64,000 bases of DNA from an uncultured delta proteobacterium (GTDB lineage Bacteria; Desulfobacterota; Syntrophia; Syntrophales; UBA2185): the NCBI GenBank assembly GCA_963729715.1, contig CAVSPA010000016.1:1-64000 (forward strand), given 5' to 3'. Below, piece after piece: positions 15,001 through 18,000 of this stretch (its first letter is position 1; every line of letters starts with the position of its first letter). The position numbers are program-made.

Positions 15001-18000
15001 CAGATCAAAAAATCTCACAAAGAAAAAACGTATTGAAATCGCCCGCAAAGCCGCACAGGCAAGGTGGGGAAAATAATGCTTGACACTTGGTTTAGTTATA
15101 ACTAAACTATGCAGAACAAAGTTTCTTATGAAATTACTGAGCTTGAAACTTCACAACACCCCAGACGCGGCGTTGCCTTTCTTATTTCTGGTAATAAAAG
15201 AGTTACGGCAAAGGATGCCTTTGATGGATTGAATCAAAATACCAGAAGTTTTTTCAGCACAAGATTTGATCAATGGGTACAAGGTAAACAAAATGATAAA
15301 TGGTATCATGGATGGTCGAGGTCAGAATTTGGAGGCATATATACGAATTGTTATGTTTTCAAATCTAAAGAGAAAAAATTAGAACAAAGGCTGTATGGTT
15401 TTTTATGTCATCCAATAGCATCAAACCAAAGATACCTTGCTTGCATATTGATAAATCATGCCGTGAAAAAACAACATGAAACGGATACAGTGAACTTAAA
15501 AGACGTAGAAGAAATTAGAACGAACATTGATGCACGAAAAGCTGTTAATGCTTTTTTTGAGGAGATCAAAGATGCATTGGACGGAACGAAATACTAAAGA
15601 TTATATATTTAGGATTGCGGTAGATTTTATCGATCAATTGGAAAAGAACATGGGCGATATTACTCAAGATAAACTTGCCACTATTCTTGGAAAAACCAAA
15701 GGATATATTTCTCAAGTAATAAATCATCCCGGAAATATTACACTGAACACTATGGTAAAGTTTGCCAGGGCGCTTGGGATGAAAATATCGATAGTAGCTT
15801 ATTCGGATGGTGACCCGGAAAATAGAAGGGGTCCCATTGATTCAGAGATATTTAAAATTTGTTGGGAAAGACAAGGCAAGCCCAGTGATTTTTGGTCTAT
15901 TAAAGAGGCTGATCAAACAGCGAAGACCGCAAATAGCAACGCAGGTAATATATATATCTATCCAAAGGCATTTAAAGACATCATCATATCAAATACAGCC
16001 ACTCCGGAAAGTTTAGCATTTCAAACCAAAGAGACATTGAGTGTTGCAGTAAAATAGGAGGATAATGCTATGTCAGAAACATCAGGTTATAATTTCAACC
16101 ACAAAGAGATTGCCGAAGCATTAATTAAATATCAAGGTCTGCATGAAGGTCAATGGCAGATAAGCGTTGAATTTGGAATATCCGCCGCCAACATCCAAAC
16201 CGGAGAAAATCAATATTCTCCCGCCGCGATCGTGCCTATTATTAATATCGGCATTGTGAAAGTCCCCCAAGAAATGCCCTTGTCTGTTGATGCATCAAAG
16301 GTAAATCCAGCATAATTTGGCGCAAACTATTTTTTTGATTCCATGTGATATTTTACTTGACAATGCTTGAGCGCTCAAGTATAAAGGTCAGTAAGGAACA
16401 TACTTGAGGGGGCACACCATGAACAAACTAAGCGTAGAAAAAAGGGTACAAGTTATAAGCTGCCTTGTTGAGGGAAACAGCATCCGCGCCACAGTACGCA
16501 TGACAGGAGTTGCAAAGAATACGATTGTCAAGCTACTGGCAGAAGTAGGCGAAGCCTGTTCAAACTATCAAGACAAGGTTCTTAAGAATCTACCTTGCAA
16601 GAATATTCAGTGTGATGAAATCTGGTCTTTCTGCTATGCGAAAGAAAAGAATGTGCCGAAAGATAAACGCGGCAAGTTTGGATATGGTGATGTTTGGACA
16701 TGGACAGCCATTTGTGCTGATACAAAACTTATTCCCTCATGGTTTATTGGAAATCGTGATACTGCTACCGCAAAGGCTTTCATCAATGACTTAGCCTCTC
16801 GCCTTGCTCACAGAATCCAATTAACAACGGACGGCCATAGACCTTATTTAACTGCGGTTGAAGATGCTTTTGCCGGAGACATAGACTATGCAATGCTTCA
16901 CAAGCTGTACGAATCGACCCAAGAACAAACTCGCTACAGTCCGGCAAAATGCAATGGCGCGGAGAAAAAATTAATAACAGGATTTCCCGACCCCAAGAAG
17001 GTTTCGACAAGTTATGCGGAAAGGCAGAATCTAACAATGAGAATGGGAATGAGAAGATTTACAAGACTTACAAATGCCTTTTCAAAAAAGGTAGAGAACC
17101 TTGCCCATGCTGTGTCTCTGCATTTCATGTACTATAACTTTTGCAGAATTCATCAGACGTTAAGGGTAACCCCTGCAATGGAAGCGGGCATTACCGATCA
17201 TGTATGGAACATTAAAGATATTATAGAGTTAGTCTAATAGTAAGATTTTTATTGACACGATATAGCAAAGGAGTATCATCAAATCAGCGAGAAGGTGAAA
17301 TAGAATCAAGAACCGGAACGGGGCGCGTGGCACTAGGGCAAGTCACAAACCCCGTTCTCATTTTGTGCCCCCGTAGCTTAATGGATAAAGCACCTTCTCG
17401 CTAAGTTGGTTATCTTGGTTCGAATCCTAGCGGGGGCACACCTATGTTTAACGAAGCTCAGCCCAACCGGTTAACGTTGGGTTGCCATTATTGGGTAAAA
17501 CAAGATAAGCCGAACCAGGAGGAACGTCAAAGGCAATTTGACTTTGCCCTGAGGCAGAAGACGATGCTGCACTGCATAGATTTCCATTAACCAGTGCGGC
17601 TACACCCGTAGCTCTTATAGACACAATCATTGTCCTACTTGTCGTGTTGTAATATGTCACGCGTAGCGCTCTGCTTGCTGTGACGTTTTGCCAGGTCTGT
17701 AGATGCTCAATTTGTGCTTTTTGTTCAGGAGGTTTGGCGGAATCGCCCTGTGCTGATGGTTGATCTTTCTTTGGGTGTTCTTCATTATATTTATCAATTG
17801 CCCTAACCCATAAAGCGGTCGCTATAATTAATACGACAACAAAAGTAATACAAACGAACACTGCCCATCCTCTATATGGATGGTTTAGAAAAAATCTTCC
17901 ATAAAACCACGCAAGCCAATCAACTGGATTCAAAAATTTTCTCCATTGCACAGGGTTAAAATTTCTTCTCATAATTTCACCCCCGTGTCAACCTTCCAAA

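Follow-up and report, generated by a model that had tools for sequence, protein, structure and literature searches.

A probable IS1-family transposon between rmuC and polX

The window analysed here, a stretch of 64,000 nucleotides, contains a 3,233-bp IS1-family transposon at 14781-18013, which is inserted between rmuC and polX and carries as cargo a tRNA gene lying 559 nt inside its right end. From left to right, the features are:

14773-14780, no strand: target-site duplication, left copy GAAGACAG (the same 8 nt at 18014-18021)
14781-14796, + strand: left terminal inverted repeat GGTAGTGGGTCAGTTT (17998-18013 is its exact reverse complement)
14846-15076, + strand: 76-aa basic protein, conserved first gene of the IS family (homologues; no Pfam or NCBIfam match)
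15109-15597, + strand: 162-aa cargo ORF, no assigned family (no Pfam, NCBIfam, PHROG or PADLOC match)
15527-16057, + strand: 176-aa helix-turn-helix (Xre type) cargo protein (Pfam HTH_3, 30 bits)
16070-16315, + strand: 81-aa cargo ORF (from the ORF list; no Pfam, NCBIfam, PHROG or PADLOC match)
16404-17237, + strand: IS1-family DDE transposase, 277 aa, intact (NCBIfam transpos_IS1, homologues, catalytic residues)
17252-17279, + strand: promoter-like TTGACA-16-TATCAT for the tRNA unit (11/12 matches)
17315-17358, + strand: two-tier leader hairpin, then a U-rich run, directly 5' of the tRNA (predicted fold, conserved sequence)
17367-17439, + strand: tRNA with Arg-type body, GCU anticodon, C33 and a 4-nt variable loop, without CCA (ARAGORN, Rfam, own parse)
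17448-17972, - strand: 174-aa cargo ORF with a phage tail-fibre-like C-terminus (PHROG matches)
17998-18013, - strand: right terminal inverted repeat, AAACTGACCCACTACC on the + strand (sequence read)
18014-18021, no strand: target-site duplication, right copy GAAGACAG (sequence and empty sites in relatives)

The transposase matched NCBIfam transpos_IS1 with an E value of 1.1e-15 (58 bits against a cut-off of 100 bits), and its matches to Pfam IS1 and IS240 also lay below cut-off; homologues in plasmid records, 52-62% identical, are annotated 'IS1 family transposase', and the residues D71, D143 and E206 were invariant among 8 homologues. The 76-aa gene is preceded by a promoter-like site at 14811-14839; homologues of its product were found at 5/49 loci of a pattern scan (described below) and at 42/80 metagenome loci, and a Mesorhizobium plasmid record has the annotation 'histone H1' at the position that corresponds to it. 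For the 162-aa ORF, a protein atlas yielded hypothetical clusters and one weak lead to Gp49 (12% of members). The Xre-type protein produced weak HipB/HigA-type antitoxin matches below cut-off as well as PADLOC 'control protein' matches, and these generic HTH matches were the only ones that PADLOC returned for the cargo ORFs, with no defence family besides. The 174-aa ORF matched phrog_18834 (E 1e-11) and a tail-fibre PHROG (E 3e-6), with no Pfam family above cut-off. Pfam searches detected neither an integrase gene in the element nor, with the flanks included, any gene resembling a synthetase.

The survey's finding had placed the tRNA on a mobile stretch, and the perfect 16-bp repeats and 8-bp duplication now define that stretch as a transposon, probably of the IS1 family. 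The rmuC/polX site is empty in six same-genus genomes, in which homology breaks at ~14779-14781 and resumes at ~18108-18110; the target site occurs once in same-genus genomes without the element, and the empty site is an intergenic spacer without a tRNA. The tRNA was absent by BLAST from the 10 other genomes of the genus. The element, with its perfect repeats and duplication, is young at this locus. The GGTAGTGGGTCAGTTT 16-mer, with 0-4 mismatches, flanks transposase relatives in most of 160 sampled loci.

The tRNA gene at 17367-17439

ARAGORN called the gene as a 73-nt tRNA-Ser(gct) on the + strand, and the Rfam tRNA model (RF00005) recognised a full-length cloverleaf over 17367-17438 with 54.1 bits against a gathering score of 29, which confirms the survey's observation of a short Ser(GCU)-called tRNA lacking a long variable arm. 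By our own parse, the acceptor stem GCCCCCG/CGGGGGC is paired in 7/7 positions, the D stem is GCTT/AAGC, and the D loop is AATGGATA, with A20 directly after G18G19. The anticodon stem CCTTC/GTTGG comprises 3 pairs and two U-U oppositions in place of five pairs, and the anticodon loop TCGCTAA gives G34 C35 U36, with a C at position 33. The variable loop TTAT has 4 nt, and the T stem CTTGG/CCTAG includes one U-U. The gene ends in A73 followed by C, and CCA is not encoded.

In several of these respects the gene departs from the genome's 47 other tRNAs, all of which have U33 and 45/47 of which encode CCA; its two anticodon-stem non-pairs compare with 1/235 stem cells among them. The two anticodon-stem U-U pairs and the missing CCA had already been reported by the survey, which was silent on C33 and the T-stem U-U pair. 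The minimum-energy fold computed by RNAfold lacked the anticodon hairpin. In Rfam score the gene lies 10 bits below its closest relative (64.7), and among 11 other scored members of the family described below (45.7-68.1) only L035, at 45.7, scored lower; genuine tRNA-Arg(CCU) genes scored 65.8-68.5. The copy is also among the 5 most mismatched of 38 parsed family members. When four DNA runs were compared over 16900-17900, small contigs from runs X3 and X5 were identical to 17228-17540, including the loop; they give no independent support for that sequence, since contigs and assembly may share a source.

An arginine-type body with a serine anticodon

A normal 95-nt tRNA-Ser(GCU) is present alongside in the genome (C6:56298-56392), as the survey had stated. 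The genome's four tRNA-Ser genes measure 86-95 nt, and all five other Ser/Sec-type tRNAs have the long arm characteristic of class II tRNA-Ser; because it has a 4-nt loop in its place, the gene at 17367-17439 cannot be a bacterial tRNA-Ser. It shares instead the acceptor stem, A73 and the D-loop GGATA with the host tRNA-Arg(CCU), which is intact on another contig (C5:95835-95911), and a 15-nt exact match (17364-17378 to C5:95832-95846) takes in 3 nt of 5' flank. A repeated global alignment again returned Thr(GGU), Arg(UCU) and Arg(CCU) as the nearest tRNAs.

The bacterial arginine identity set is given in PMC9976931 as A20, C35, U36 or G36, and A73 or G73. The survey had pointed to A20 and C35; both are present, together with U36 and A73, although the set was established in E. 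coli and T. thermophilus and not in this organism. In this genome A20 is found in 5/5 tRNA-Arg and in 2/42 other tRNAs. When the body pattern was searched in viral contigs with position 34 left free, 116 of 118 matches were tRNA-Arg(UCU/CCU), position 34 being T in 106, C in 10, G in 1 and A in 1. An arginine-type body is thus supported by sequence comparison. The anticodon GCU is neither NCG nor YCU, as arginine tRNAs have, and body and anticodon of this tRNA, read from their sequences, disagree, with Arg-type elements on one side and a serine anticodon on the other.

Promoter and leader of the tRNA unit

The site at 17252-17279 is the best promoter-like site in the element, and both of its hexamers are kept in the two closest relatives. 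The leader hairpin was predicted in the window and in both of these relatives, with z-scores of -5.0 and -5.8 for the relatives and of -1.8 for the window leader alone; promoter and leader are conserved in 3 relatives. An Rfam scan of 14700-18150 at a permissive threshold returned nothing besides the tRNA, so the hairpin belongs to no described family. A terminator-like hairpin and U-run in front of the tRNA could keep its expression very low. The genome contains a gene of the PolyA_pol (CCA-enzyme) family, and CCA maturation of the tRNA is therefore possible.

A family of short GCU and ACU tRNAs

A BLAST search of 339 genomes of the order Syntrophales revealed 4 relatives in other families, with anticodons GCU, GCU, GCU and ACU; all 4 are short, carry the acceptor stem GCCCCCG and A20, and lack CCA. 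Of the remaining loci, the 9 for which ARAGORN gave a call were genuine tRNA-Arg(CCU), and one match without an ARAGORN call (L007/L020) is a degraded relative. When 185,579 species genomes were scanned with a sequence pattern, 49 loci emerged, 39 of them called as short Ser(GCU/ACU) and distributed over many phyla. The survey's view that the tRNA, which it did not find in 60 other Syntrophales genomes, is strain-specific is not upheld in the sense of a tRNA without relatives. A blastn search of INPHARED phage genomes with the 73-nt tRNA gave no match, and a tyrosine integrase was found near 3/49 of the pattern-scan loci.

Thirty-eight members were parsed, namely 37 of the 39 pattern-scan calls plus the window copy; of these, 37 have A20 and 35 have a purine, A73 or G73, as discriminator. 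When 40 sequences were aligned, 93.9% of the stem cells paired, compared with 68.5% in shuffles (0/500 reached the observed value); double-sided stem changes numbered 196 versus 52, and the score was 0.665 versus at most 0.167 for slid controls. These figures show a cloverleaf preserved by compensatory changes. For most members the search pattern itself fixed the anticodon as GCU or ACU, and only 6 relatives were found without that constraint, 4 of which form one clade; all 6 keep a purine at 34, C35, U36 and A37.

Non-pairs were concentrated in the anticodon stem (15.8% across the family; other stems 0-5.6%, anticodon stems of the genome's own tRNAs 0.4%), and C33 was present in 11/38 members, a combination consistent with a constraint on decoding that is relaxed or altered. 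Better-formed members, with U33 and a paired stem, are those of L002/L063 and L004/L043. Copies from different phyla, namely the window copy, L035 and L045, share tandem pyrimidine mismatches at 29:41 and 30:40. Between the window copy and its 92%-identical relative, all 7 differences map to the 21 nt of the anticodon arm and variable loop, and the other 52 nt are identical (P = 7e-5). Together, these sequence comparisons place the tRNA in a conserved family that, across many phyla, is carried by this IS family and by other mobile DNA.

tRNA cargo across the IS family

The tRNA cargo was surveyed in 160 sampled copies of the IS family, which by estimate is present on about 23,000 metagenome stretches. 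The tRNAs within the repeats comprised short ones with ACU and GCU, others in which an Arg-like body is combined with CGC, CGU or CGG, three of independent origin that join a Leu-like body to UUA (ochre-suppressor type) in a normal loop, and long-arm bodies with UAG and UUC. Among 14 distinct cargo tRNAs none was clearly ordinary and matched, whereas tRNAs just outside the repeats look ordinary; three of the Arg-like cargo tRNAs have G35, which would not fit the ArgRS rules. Nearest-neighbour typing against this genome's tRNAs was crude, giving the correct isotype in 10/16 outside-repeat controls, and the typing of cargo therefore rests on arm length, G3-C70, A20 and anticodon. On these characters, the tRNAs inside the repeats appear to be mostly mismatches of body and anticodon.

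Copies of the IS family often lie ~0-150 nt from host tRNA genes (L092, L113, L114, L150, L194-196, L202 and L234). No protein partner was conserved beside the tRNA across 8 transposon loci except the transposase and the 76-aa protein, both of which are also present in many copies without a tRNA. The AGY share of serine codons in the transposase genes was 62/160 in 9 tRNA-carrying elements and 468/1124 in 76 without, so that no AGY avoidance was linked to the tRNAs (Mann-Whitney p = 0.51). Recoding of the element's own genes was also considered and is out, since conserved arginine columns of the transposase are arginine in 8/8 under the standard code.

Possible functions of the tRNA

The reading that we favour, tentatively and at something short of an even chance, is that of a tRNA carried by the transposon, chargeable by ArgRS and weakly reading AGC/AGU as arginine. 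Its ancestor would have been a tRNA-Arg(CCU/UCU)-type gene in which position 34 became a purine, and it is by this change that the anticodon GCU came to match the serine codons AGC/AGU. Transcription would start from the promoter at 17252-17279 and proceed through the hairpin leader, the RNA would be trimmed, and CCA would be added by the host nucleotidyltransferase; ArgRS, reading A20, C35, U36 and A73 but not position 34, would then charge the RNA with arginine. The outcome would be low-level insertion of arginine at AGC/AGU, as expected of an attenuated missense tRNA. Decoding by the 17367-17439 copy is probably weak, perhaps nil, because of C33 and the two U-U pairs of its anticodon stem. 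The survey had proposed a natural Ser-to-Arg mistranslating tRNA on mobile DNA; the Arg-type body and the mobile carrier stand, and what falls away is that the tRNA is unique to the strain or a leftover of integration.

A wider form of the proposal is possible but doubtful: one IS1-family lineage, defined by the GGTAGTGGGTCAGTTT repeat and the 76-aa gene, might be a cross-phylum vehicle for portable recoding tRNAs, comprising Arg-type tRNAs that read Ser AGC/AGU (or other) codons, Leu-type ochre suppressors and Ser-type tRNAs with foreign anticodons. The 17367-17439 gene would in that case be a deliberately attenuated Ser-to-Arg missense tRNA, providing its carrier with switchable low-level mistranslation or stop readthrough.

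Much of what is irregular in the gene could also be damage. A captured tRNA-Arg, useless to the element and drifting, would account for GCU, C33 and the three mismatched stem pairs, as well as for the missing CCA and the low Rfam score within the family; the frequent closeness of the IS family to host tRNA genes offers an easy capture route, a degraded relative exists (L007/L020), and the genus's 10 other genomes lack this tRNA. We regard such a hitch-hiking pseudogene as rather unlikely, given that the damage is uneven (apart from the anticodon arm and variable loop, all 52 nt agree with the 92% relative), that covariation across 40 sequences is strong, and that the promoter and leader are conserved while repeats and transposase are intact. 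The element is, moreover, young here, and 0/14 distinct cargo tRNAs are clearly ordinary, although some would be expected among young captures. The survey's alternative of a decaying tRNA-Arg copy left by an integrating element is not borne out by a complete gene that is internal to an intact transposon and has a conserved promoter of its own. In the form of an attachment-site remnant from a tyrosine-integrase element it is very improbable: the host tRNA-Arg(CCU) does share the acceptor stem and the 3 nt before it, and an integrase does lie near a few pattern-scan loci, but the tRNA is full length and 559 nt inside a DDE transposon rather than at its border, the element has no integrase, and the genuine tRNA-Arg(CCU) is intact elsewhere. 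This origin was rejected, being contradicted by the empty sites, a spacer without a tRNA in the relatives, and by the perfect inverted repeats and target duplication. Least credible of all is a working serine tRNA, which has the GCU anticodon in its favour and was rejected on the short variable loop, unlike the long arms of all five other Ser/Sec-type tRNAs, and on a body pattern that is that of tRNA-Arg.

The selective loss of pairing in one arm is what a maintained but non-decoding tRNA-like RNA would also display. The acceptor, D and T arms would be kept for processing, perhaps charging, and binding by tRNA-handling proteins, while the anticodon arm would be disabled or free to evolve; the RNA would serve the element by some means other than decoding, for example by titrating tRNA-directed enzymes or toxins as a decoy or sponge, as an RNA partner of toxin-antitoxin-like cargo, or as a processing signal. 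Consistent with this are the near-perfect pairing of the acceptor, D and T stems beside 15.8% non-pairs in the anticodon stem, C33 in 11/38 members of the family while U33 is universal in the genome's 47 other tRNAs, the recurrence of the 29:41 and 30:40 mismatches in the window copy, L035 and L045, the confinement of all 7 differences from the closest relative to the anticodon arm and variable loop, and transposase genes without AGY avoidance. An Xre-type HTH protein and the ORF weakly linked to Gp49 are among the neighbouring cargo, and irregular tRNAs near toxin-antitoxin genes were charged but unused in E. coli translation (PMC5389517). We nevertheless consider this unlikely, if by no means negligible. 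No protein partner beyond the transposase and the 76-aa protein is conserved across the 8 loci, and purine 34, C35, U36 and A37 are kept in 6/6 unconstrained relatives; A37-A38 adjoining position 36 is the normal context for decoding of ANN codons. Three independent Leu-like cargo tRNAs, each with exactly UUA in a normal loop, further point to selection on what is decoded and not mere disabling.

Significance

Few natural tRNAs are known in which body and anticodon disagree (tRNAProX, allo-tRNAs). To these are added here an Arg-type class with serine anticodons in many phyla and a defined carrier, an IS1-family transposon with clear ends, which explains the spread of mismatch tRNAs and allows them to be located with ease and cloned together with their own promoter; within this transposon family the cargo tRNAs seem to be of mismatch or suppressor type, in contrast to the ordinary host tRNAs nearby. 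If such tRNAs are active, a transposon can bring misreading of sense or stop codons into a cell, which matters for adaptive mistranslation, for toxin-like selfish functions of mobile DNA and for the safety of genetic-code firewalls. If inactive, they illustrate neatly how a tRNA can be captured and then decay selectively in its anticodon arm. Literature searches, with terms also looked up in the main texts of PMC11415595, PMC5389517, PMC7609411, PMC13092985 and bioRxiv 10.64898/2026.05.15.725136, yielded no earlier description of IS-borne mismatch tRNAs or of Arg-type GCU/ACU tRNAs; supplementary figures S5-S7 of PMC5389517 may show related irregular tRNAs.

Comparison with known systems

The tRNAProX family (tRNAProA/N/T) of Streptomyces and Kitasatospora, shown experimentally to mistranslate when expressed, likewise consists of natural bacterial tRNAs whose body and anticodon disagree, which lack U33 (having A33) and many of which have A34 (PMC11415595). 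These tRNAs have proline identity, are accompanied by a dedicated ProRSx encoded beside them and belong to Actinomycetes (PMC11415595), whereas the tRNA described here has an Arg-type body, no synthetase gene nearby and an IS1-family carrier. The allo-tRNAs or 'irregular tRNAs' of soil and sediment bacteria (Mukai et al. 2017, PMC5389517), some of which are charged but unused in translation, resemble it in their mismatch of anticodon and body and in their stem-destabilising mutations; their genes lie near those of toxin-antitoxin systems and, for one of them, near an ORF related to transposons. They differ in their 8/4 or 9/3 acceptor/T architecture and mostly serine identity (PMC5389517), the 17367-17439 tRNA having a canonical 7/5 cloverleaf, a short variable loop and Arg-type elements. 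The main text of PMC5389517 contains no description that we saw of an IS1-family carrier with defined repeats.

Closer to home, the host tRNA-Arg(CCU) has an identical acceptor stem, A73, D-loop GGATA and 3 nt before the gene, as the survey had observed for the first three, but it differs in its D-stem and T-arm sequences and in having CCU, U33, five anticodon-stem pairs, a 5-nt variable loop and an encoded CCA. The tRNA-Arg(UCU/CCU) genes of mobile DNA and phages have the same body pattern, with A20 in 102/107 distinct viral-contig members; C33 is commoner in the purine-34 class (11/38) than among these distinct pyrimidine-class members (3/107). The carrier itself is similar to IS1-family elements with passenger genes in its DDE transposase with IS1-type matches, its short inverted repeats and its 8-9-bp target duplication, and the 14781-18013 element is set apart from that family by a single-ORF transposase, an extra conserved 76-aa gene at the left end, and a variable cargo that includes tRNAs.

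A tRNA with an arginine-type body and a serine anticodon

ARAGORN called two tRNAs in the window, one of them a tRNA-Ser(gct) at 17367-17439 (+), and the Rfam tRNA model matched 17367-17438 at full length (54.1 bits; gathering score 29). The parts of this tRNA are as follows.

Parts of the window tRNA
Acceptor stem: GCCCCCG/CGGGGGC, 7 of 7 pairs, read from the window sequence
Positions 8 and 9: U8, A9
D arm: stem GCTT/AAGC, loop AATGGATA
Position 26: A26
Anticodon stem: CCTTC/GTTGG
Anticodon loop: TCGCTAA
Variable loop: TTAT
T arm: stem CTTGG/CCTAG, loop TTCGAAT
3' end: A73, then C, then ACC, not CCA

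The whole genome (19 contigs) yielded 48 tRNA calls, including an ordinary 95-nt tRNA-Ser(GCU) at C6:56298-56392 (C1, C5 and C6 are contigs of this genome) and a tRNA-Arg(CCU) at C5:95835-95911, whose acceptor stem, A73 and GGATA are identical to those of the window tRNA; the two share a 15-nt exact match reaching 3 nt upstream of the 5' end. From the ARAGORN and Rfam calls and the comparison with the genome's tRNAs, the factual description of the molecule in the survey's finding is therefore correct throughout. Absent from that account were three oddities: the window tRNA has C33, and U33 is present in all 47 other tRNAs; its anticodon stem holds two U-U pairs, as against a single non-pair among the 235 such cells counted in the other tRNAs; and its T stem has a U-U at 51:63. 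CCA ends 45 of the 47 other genes. RNAfold alone did not recover the anticodon hairpin of the window tRNA.

Positions 1-7488 of the window are 99.8% identical to C1:7486-1, so that the tRNA list for the genome includes the tRNA-Val(CAC) at 2039-2113 twice; redundancy in the assembly or a mixture of strains is the probable cause (stated contamination 6.48%).

The tRNA is cargo of a transposon, probably of the IS1 family

The window tRNA lies in a stretch of low G+C content (0.39-0.42, versus about 0.5 around it) between two genes that are adjacent in genomes of the same genus.

Features of the insertion
13142-14668 (-): rmuC, left neighbour
14773-14780: target duplication, direct, GAAGACAG
14781-14796: terminal inverted repeat, perfect 16-bp, GGTAGTGGGTCAGTTT
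17998-18013: complement of the terminal repeat
18014-18021: second copy of the target duplication
18200-19918 (+): family-X DNA polymerase gene, right neighbour

In six same-genus genomes (loci L072, L073, L074, L077, L078 and L079), homology to the window ended at about 14774-14781 and restarted at about 18108-18110, and the duplicated target occurs once in the empty sites. The inserted element measures 3,233 bp, its ends being equally countable as 15-bp repeats plus a 9-bp duplication, and it is single-copy in this genome. Its + strand carries, besides the tRNA, open reading frames of 76, 162, 176 (helix-turn-helix) and 81 aa and a 277-aa DDE transposase; a 174-aa frame lies on the - strand. 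The transposase scored 58 bits (E 1.1e-15) against the NCBIfam IS1 model, the cut-off of which is 100 bits; homologues 52-62% identical to it are labelled 'IS1 family transposase' in plasmid records, and D71, D143 and E206 are invariant in eight homologues. Junctions, empty sites and transposase together show that the window tRNA is cargo of a recently inserted transposon, probably of the IS1 family. The placement of the tRNA on a mobile stretch was thus borne out by the inverted repeats, target duplication and empty sites. The same perfect repeats and target duplication tell against the proposal that it is a copy left by an integrating element; a scar of integrase-driven integration was ruled out, the tRNA being internal cargo.

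The 162-aa frame overlaps the start of the Xre-type helix-turn-helix frame by 71 nt (15109-16057) and has a weak atlas lead towards toxins of the Gp49/HigB type; the two frames could thus form a toxin-antitoxin cargo. Just right of the transposon lies a REP- or MITE-like repeat of ~70-80 nt (18039-18116); more than 30 copies of it (75-88% identity) are spread over at least seven contigs, and one same-genus genome (L078) also has it at this site. Beside rmuC, 9602-13024 (-) encodes a protein of 1140 aa that combines WD40 beta-propeller repeats with a caspase domain (Peptidase_C14) at its C-terminus. At 20861-23631, downstream of a short-chain dehydrogenase gene, lie a radical SAM gene and then a fusion of Memo and AMMECR1, a trio that recurs but has no assigned function.

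The best promoter-like site of the element, TTGACA-16-TATCAT (17252-17279; 11 of 12 matches), lies 88 nt before the tRNA, and each hexamer is kept in the two closest relatives. Also conserved in these is a two-tier leader hairpin (17315-17358) followed by a U-rich run abutting the tRNA; the hairpin matched no Rfam family and looks like a terminator or attenuator. By its sequence, then, the tRNA gene is transposon cargo with a conserved promoter-like site.

Relatives within the order

A DNA search with 17340-17460 against 339 genomes of the order found matches in 21 other genomes, with none in the 10 other genomes of the genus or the 21 of the family. ARAGORN and sequence reading were applied to the 14 returned loci, four of which proved to be short tRNAs of the window kind.

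Short tRNAs of the window kind in the order
L002: 73 nt, GCU; 92% identical to the window over 102 nt, upstream leader included
L003: 75 nt, ACU; L003:1503-1577
L004: 75 nt, GCU
L006: 74 nt, GCU

All four share the 5' acceptor GCCCCCG, an A after G18G19 and a short variable loop, and lack CCA; their existence among the 339 genomes qualifies the survey's own DNA search, which found no copy in 60 other Syntrophales genomes. One further locus (L007) gave no ARAGORN call, and the other nine loci hold ordinary tRNA-Arg(CCU) genes with a terminal CCA, which are thus the nearest ordinary relatives of the window tRNA. The window tRNA and L002 differ at seven positions, all of them in the anticodon arm and variable loop (21 nt together), and are identical over the other 52 nt (P = 7e-5 for the clustering). 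The window copy scored 54.1 bits with Rfam and L002 scored 64.7; the range was 45.7-68.1 in other members of the family and 65.8-68.5 in two genuine tRNA-Arg(CCU) genes. The L003 tRNA, called by ARAGORN and apparently well formed, was missing from the 13-locus Rfam output at the gathering threshold. A degraded tRNA-like remnant without an ARAGORN call (L020:8187-8306; contig G066:C57 of another genome) lies 13 nt before the left repeat (1 mismatch) of another IS copy, after which comes a piece of the transposase N-terminus.

Short GCU/ACU tRNAs in many phyla

A pattern drawn from five Syntrophales sequences, fixing the D-arm start, a [CT][CT][AG]CTAA loop and GTTCGA in the T arm, was scanned against one genome per species for 185,579 species. 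It matched 49 loci, in Acidobacteriota, Planctomycetota, Chloroflexota, Alphaproteobacteria, Bacteroidota, Actinomycetota, Verrucomicrobiota, Nitrospirota and others. ARAGORN called 39 of these as Ser(gct) or Ser(act) tRNAs of 73-77 nt, including the four Syntrophales loci already found; the other ten were in different registers or uncalled. A strict parser accepted 37 of the 39 (L025 and L039 were dropped), which with the window copy gave 38 tRNAs.

Features of the 38 parsed tRNAs, none fixed by the search pattern
A after G18G19 (A20): 37
Discriminator: A in 26, G in 9
CCA encoded: 9
C33: 11
Variable loop: 4 or 5 nt in all

Non-pairs made up 5.6% of the acceptor, 0% of the D, 15.8% of the anticodon and 3.2% of the T helix. 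When the 38 were aligned with two transposon-borne members, L085 and L181, 93.9% of stem cells were paired, as against 68.5 ± 1.0% in shuffles (0 of 500 reached it); cells changed on both sides numbered 196 versus 52, and the covariation score was 0.665, as against at most 0.167 with partners slid. The cloverleaf is thus kept by compensatory change, and the alignment indicates that the family is under selection for the tRNA fold.

An IS1-family transposase lies beside the tRNA at seven of the 49 loci (five of them also with the 76-aa gene), an IS1595-family transposase at six and a tyrosine integrase at three. Both repeats were found, enclosing the tRNA, at L033, L035 and L044, and at L022 the tRNA lies between left repeat and transposase. 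The usual order, on one strand, is 76-aa gene, variable cargo, tRNA, transposase; the window and L043 differ in having the tRNA after the transposase.

The purine at position 34 of this class was imposed by the pattern. With position 34 left free, at least 118 matches were obtained in viral contigs, and among the matches listed it was T in 106, C in 10, G in 1 and A in 1; distinct T/C members among them had A20 in 102 of 107 and C33 in 3 of 107. On this baseline the body belongs to the tRNA-Arg(UCU/CCU) type; members with a purine at position 34 are rare and more often have C33.

Four loci in Dehalococcoidia and Nitrospirales (L030, L032, L037, L069) combine an Arg-like body, A20 and a GCCCC-type acceptor with the loop CTCACTA; ARAGORN read them as Val(CAC), with U at 37, a further type of body/anticodon mismatch. 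The L032 tRNA adjoins an IS1595-family transposase.

Mismatched tRNAs as cargo of the IS family

A transposase profile matched about 23,000 stored metagenome stretches (the tool's estimate), of which the best 80 loci were examined; in viral contigs the best 80 of 255 loci were examined. The 16-bp repeat flanks most sampled copies on both sides (0-4 mismatches), and a homologue of the 76-aa protein lies just inside the left repeat at 42 of the 80 metagenome loci, many others ending at a contig edge. A Mesorhizobium plasmid record has the same layout, with the small gene labelled 'histone H1'; in an Acidiphilium plasmid copy a RES toxin and Xre antitoxin pair adjoins the transposase. Most sampled copies carry no tRNA; one of any kind occurred in the 4-kb flanks at 9 of 80 metagenome and 23 of 80 viral loci.

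Cargo tRNAs of the IS family (inside the repeats unless stated)
L084: 95 nt, UAG; acceptor stem read as 8-pair
L085: short, ACU
L103: 86-nt Leu-like, UUA (L103:2731-2816); and Arg-like body, CGC, G3-C70
L121: Arg-like body, CGU; repeats are 4-mismatch matches only
L163: Arg-like body, CGG
L176-L179 (near-identical): Leu-like, UUA (L176:3790-3875)
L181: short, GCU; 3' flank that of the window copy
L186: 93 nt, GUA
L191: AUA, 89 nt, and UCC; between left repeat and transposase, right repeat not found
L201: Leu-like, UUA (L201:3776-3859)
L206/L207: 91 nt, long arm, UUC
L219: AGU, nearest tRNA-Glu, C33; between left repeat and transposase, right repeat not found

'Leu-like' and 'Arg-like' denote nearest-neighbour typing plus recognised features, not a curated isotype model. 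With mismatch taken as a stop anticodon, a class-I anticodon combined with a long arm (or vice versa), or the absence of identity pairs, we counted 11 of 14 distinct cargo tRNAs (L191 and L219 included) as clearly mismatched, three as uncertain and none as clearly ordinary. The three independent long-arm Leu-like UUA tRNAs (L103, L176-L179, L201) have a normal CTTTAAA loop, lie just upstream of the transposase and, as sequences, are of the ochre-suppressor type. The tRNAs just outside the repeats (L092, L113, L114, L150, L174, L190, L194-196, L197, L202, L225, L234, L239) have lengths ordinary for their anticodons, several being CCA-ended. Nearest-neighbour typing against this genome's own tRNAs agreed with the anticodon isotype for 10 of 16 outside and 1 of 22 cargo tRNAs, a crude method to which we give little weight. 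IS copies often end ~0-150 nt from an ordinary host tRNA (L092, L113, L114, L150, L194-L196, L202, L234), suggesting a liking for tRNA-gene flanks and a route for tRNA capture.

Possible functions of the window tRNA

The nucleotides of the window tRNA agree with the set listed for bacterial arginine identity, A20, C35, U/G36 and A/G73, to which position 34 does not belong (PMC9976931, Table 1, 'Arginine identity'). The genome also holds a PolyA_pol-family gene, so that the missing CCA could be added, the match being one that cannot separate a CCA-adding enzyme from a poly(A) polymerase. We tentatively propose that the window tRNA is a weak Ser-to-Arg missense tRNA: it would be transcribed, processed and arginylated, and would then read AGC/AGU as arginine. 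In favour of decoding as the selected trait, the six relatives found without any anticodon constraint all keep purine-34, C35, U36 and A37 while their anticodon stems differ, and the three independent Leu-like cargo tRNAs are all exactly UUA, with a normal loop; LeuRS does not read the anticodon.

Against decoding, the anticodon arm is the worst-kept part of the family, C33 is common in it, and the window copy adds tandem U-U pairs; nor do the transposases of nine elements with GCU/ACU tRNAs differ in AGY use (62 of 160 Ser codons) from those of 76 tRNA-less elements (468 of 1124; p = 0.51). They are compatible both with a toxic missense tRNA that has been deliberately attenuated and with a non-decoding role. 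That the window tRNA is a maintained but non-decoding tRNA-like RNA we hold to be unlikely; a precedent may lie in the irregular tRNAs that section 16 of Mukai et al. (PMC5389517) describes as charged yet unused in translation. Within its family the window copy is probably weak or disabled, and decay as a mere hitch-hiker, set beside the compensatory changes that mark the family, appears rather doubtful. What the survey's finding had proposed, an arginine-type, mobile tRNA that would read AGC/AGU, is partly supported overall, the identity nucleotides and the transposon speaking for its arginine-type body and its mobility.

Comparison with known systems

Natural tRNAs in which identity and anticodon disagree are already known (tRNAProX, allo-tRNAs, irregular tRNAs); the main-text portions of the literature covered described neither Arg-type tRNAs with GCU/ACU nor mismatch tRNAs borne on an IS. 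The window tRNA shares with these systems the identity-anticodon mismatch, departure from U33, stem-destabilising changes and mobile, toxin-antitoxin-like gene company; tRNAProX, experimentally shown to mistranslate, likewise lacks U33 (PMC11415595). Unlike them, it combines a canonical 7/5 cloverleaf and arginine-type elements with a serine (AGY) anticodon, has no partner synthetase, and travels on a defined carrier, a probable IS1-family transposon whose ends are clear and flanked by a target duplication; its class is found in many phyla. What is new is this transposon and family context, which is more interesting than the single gene alone.
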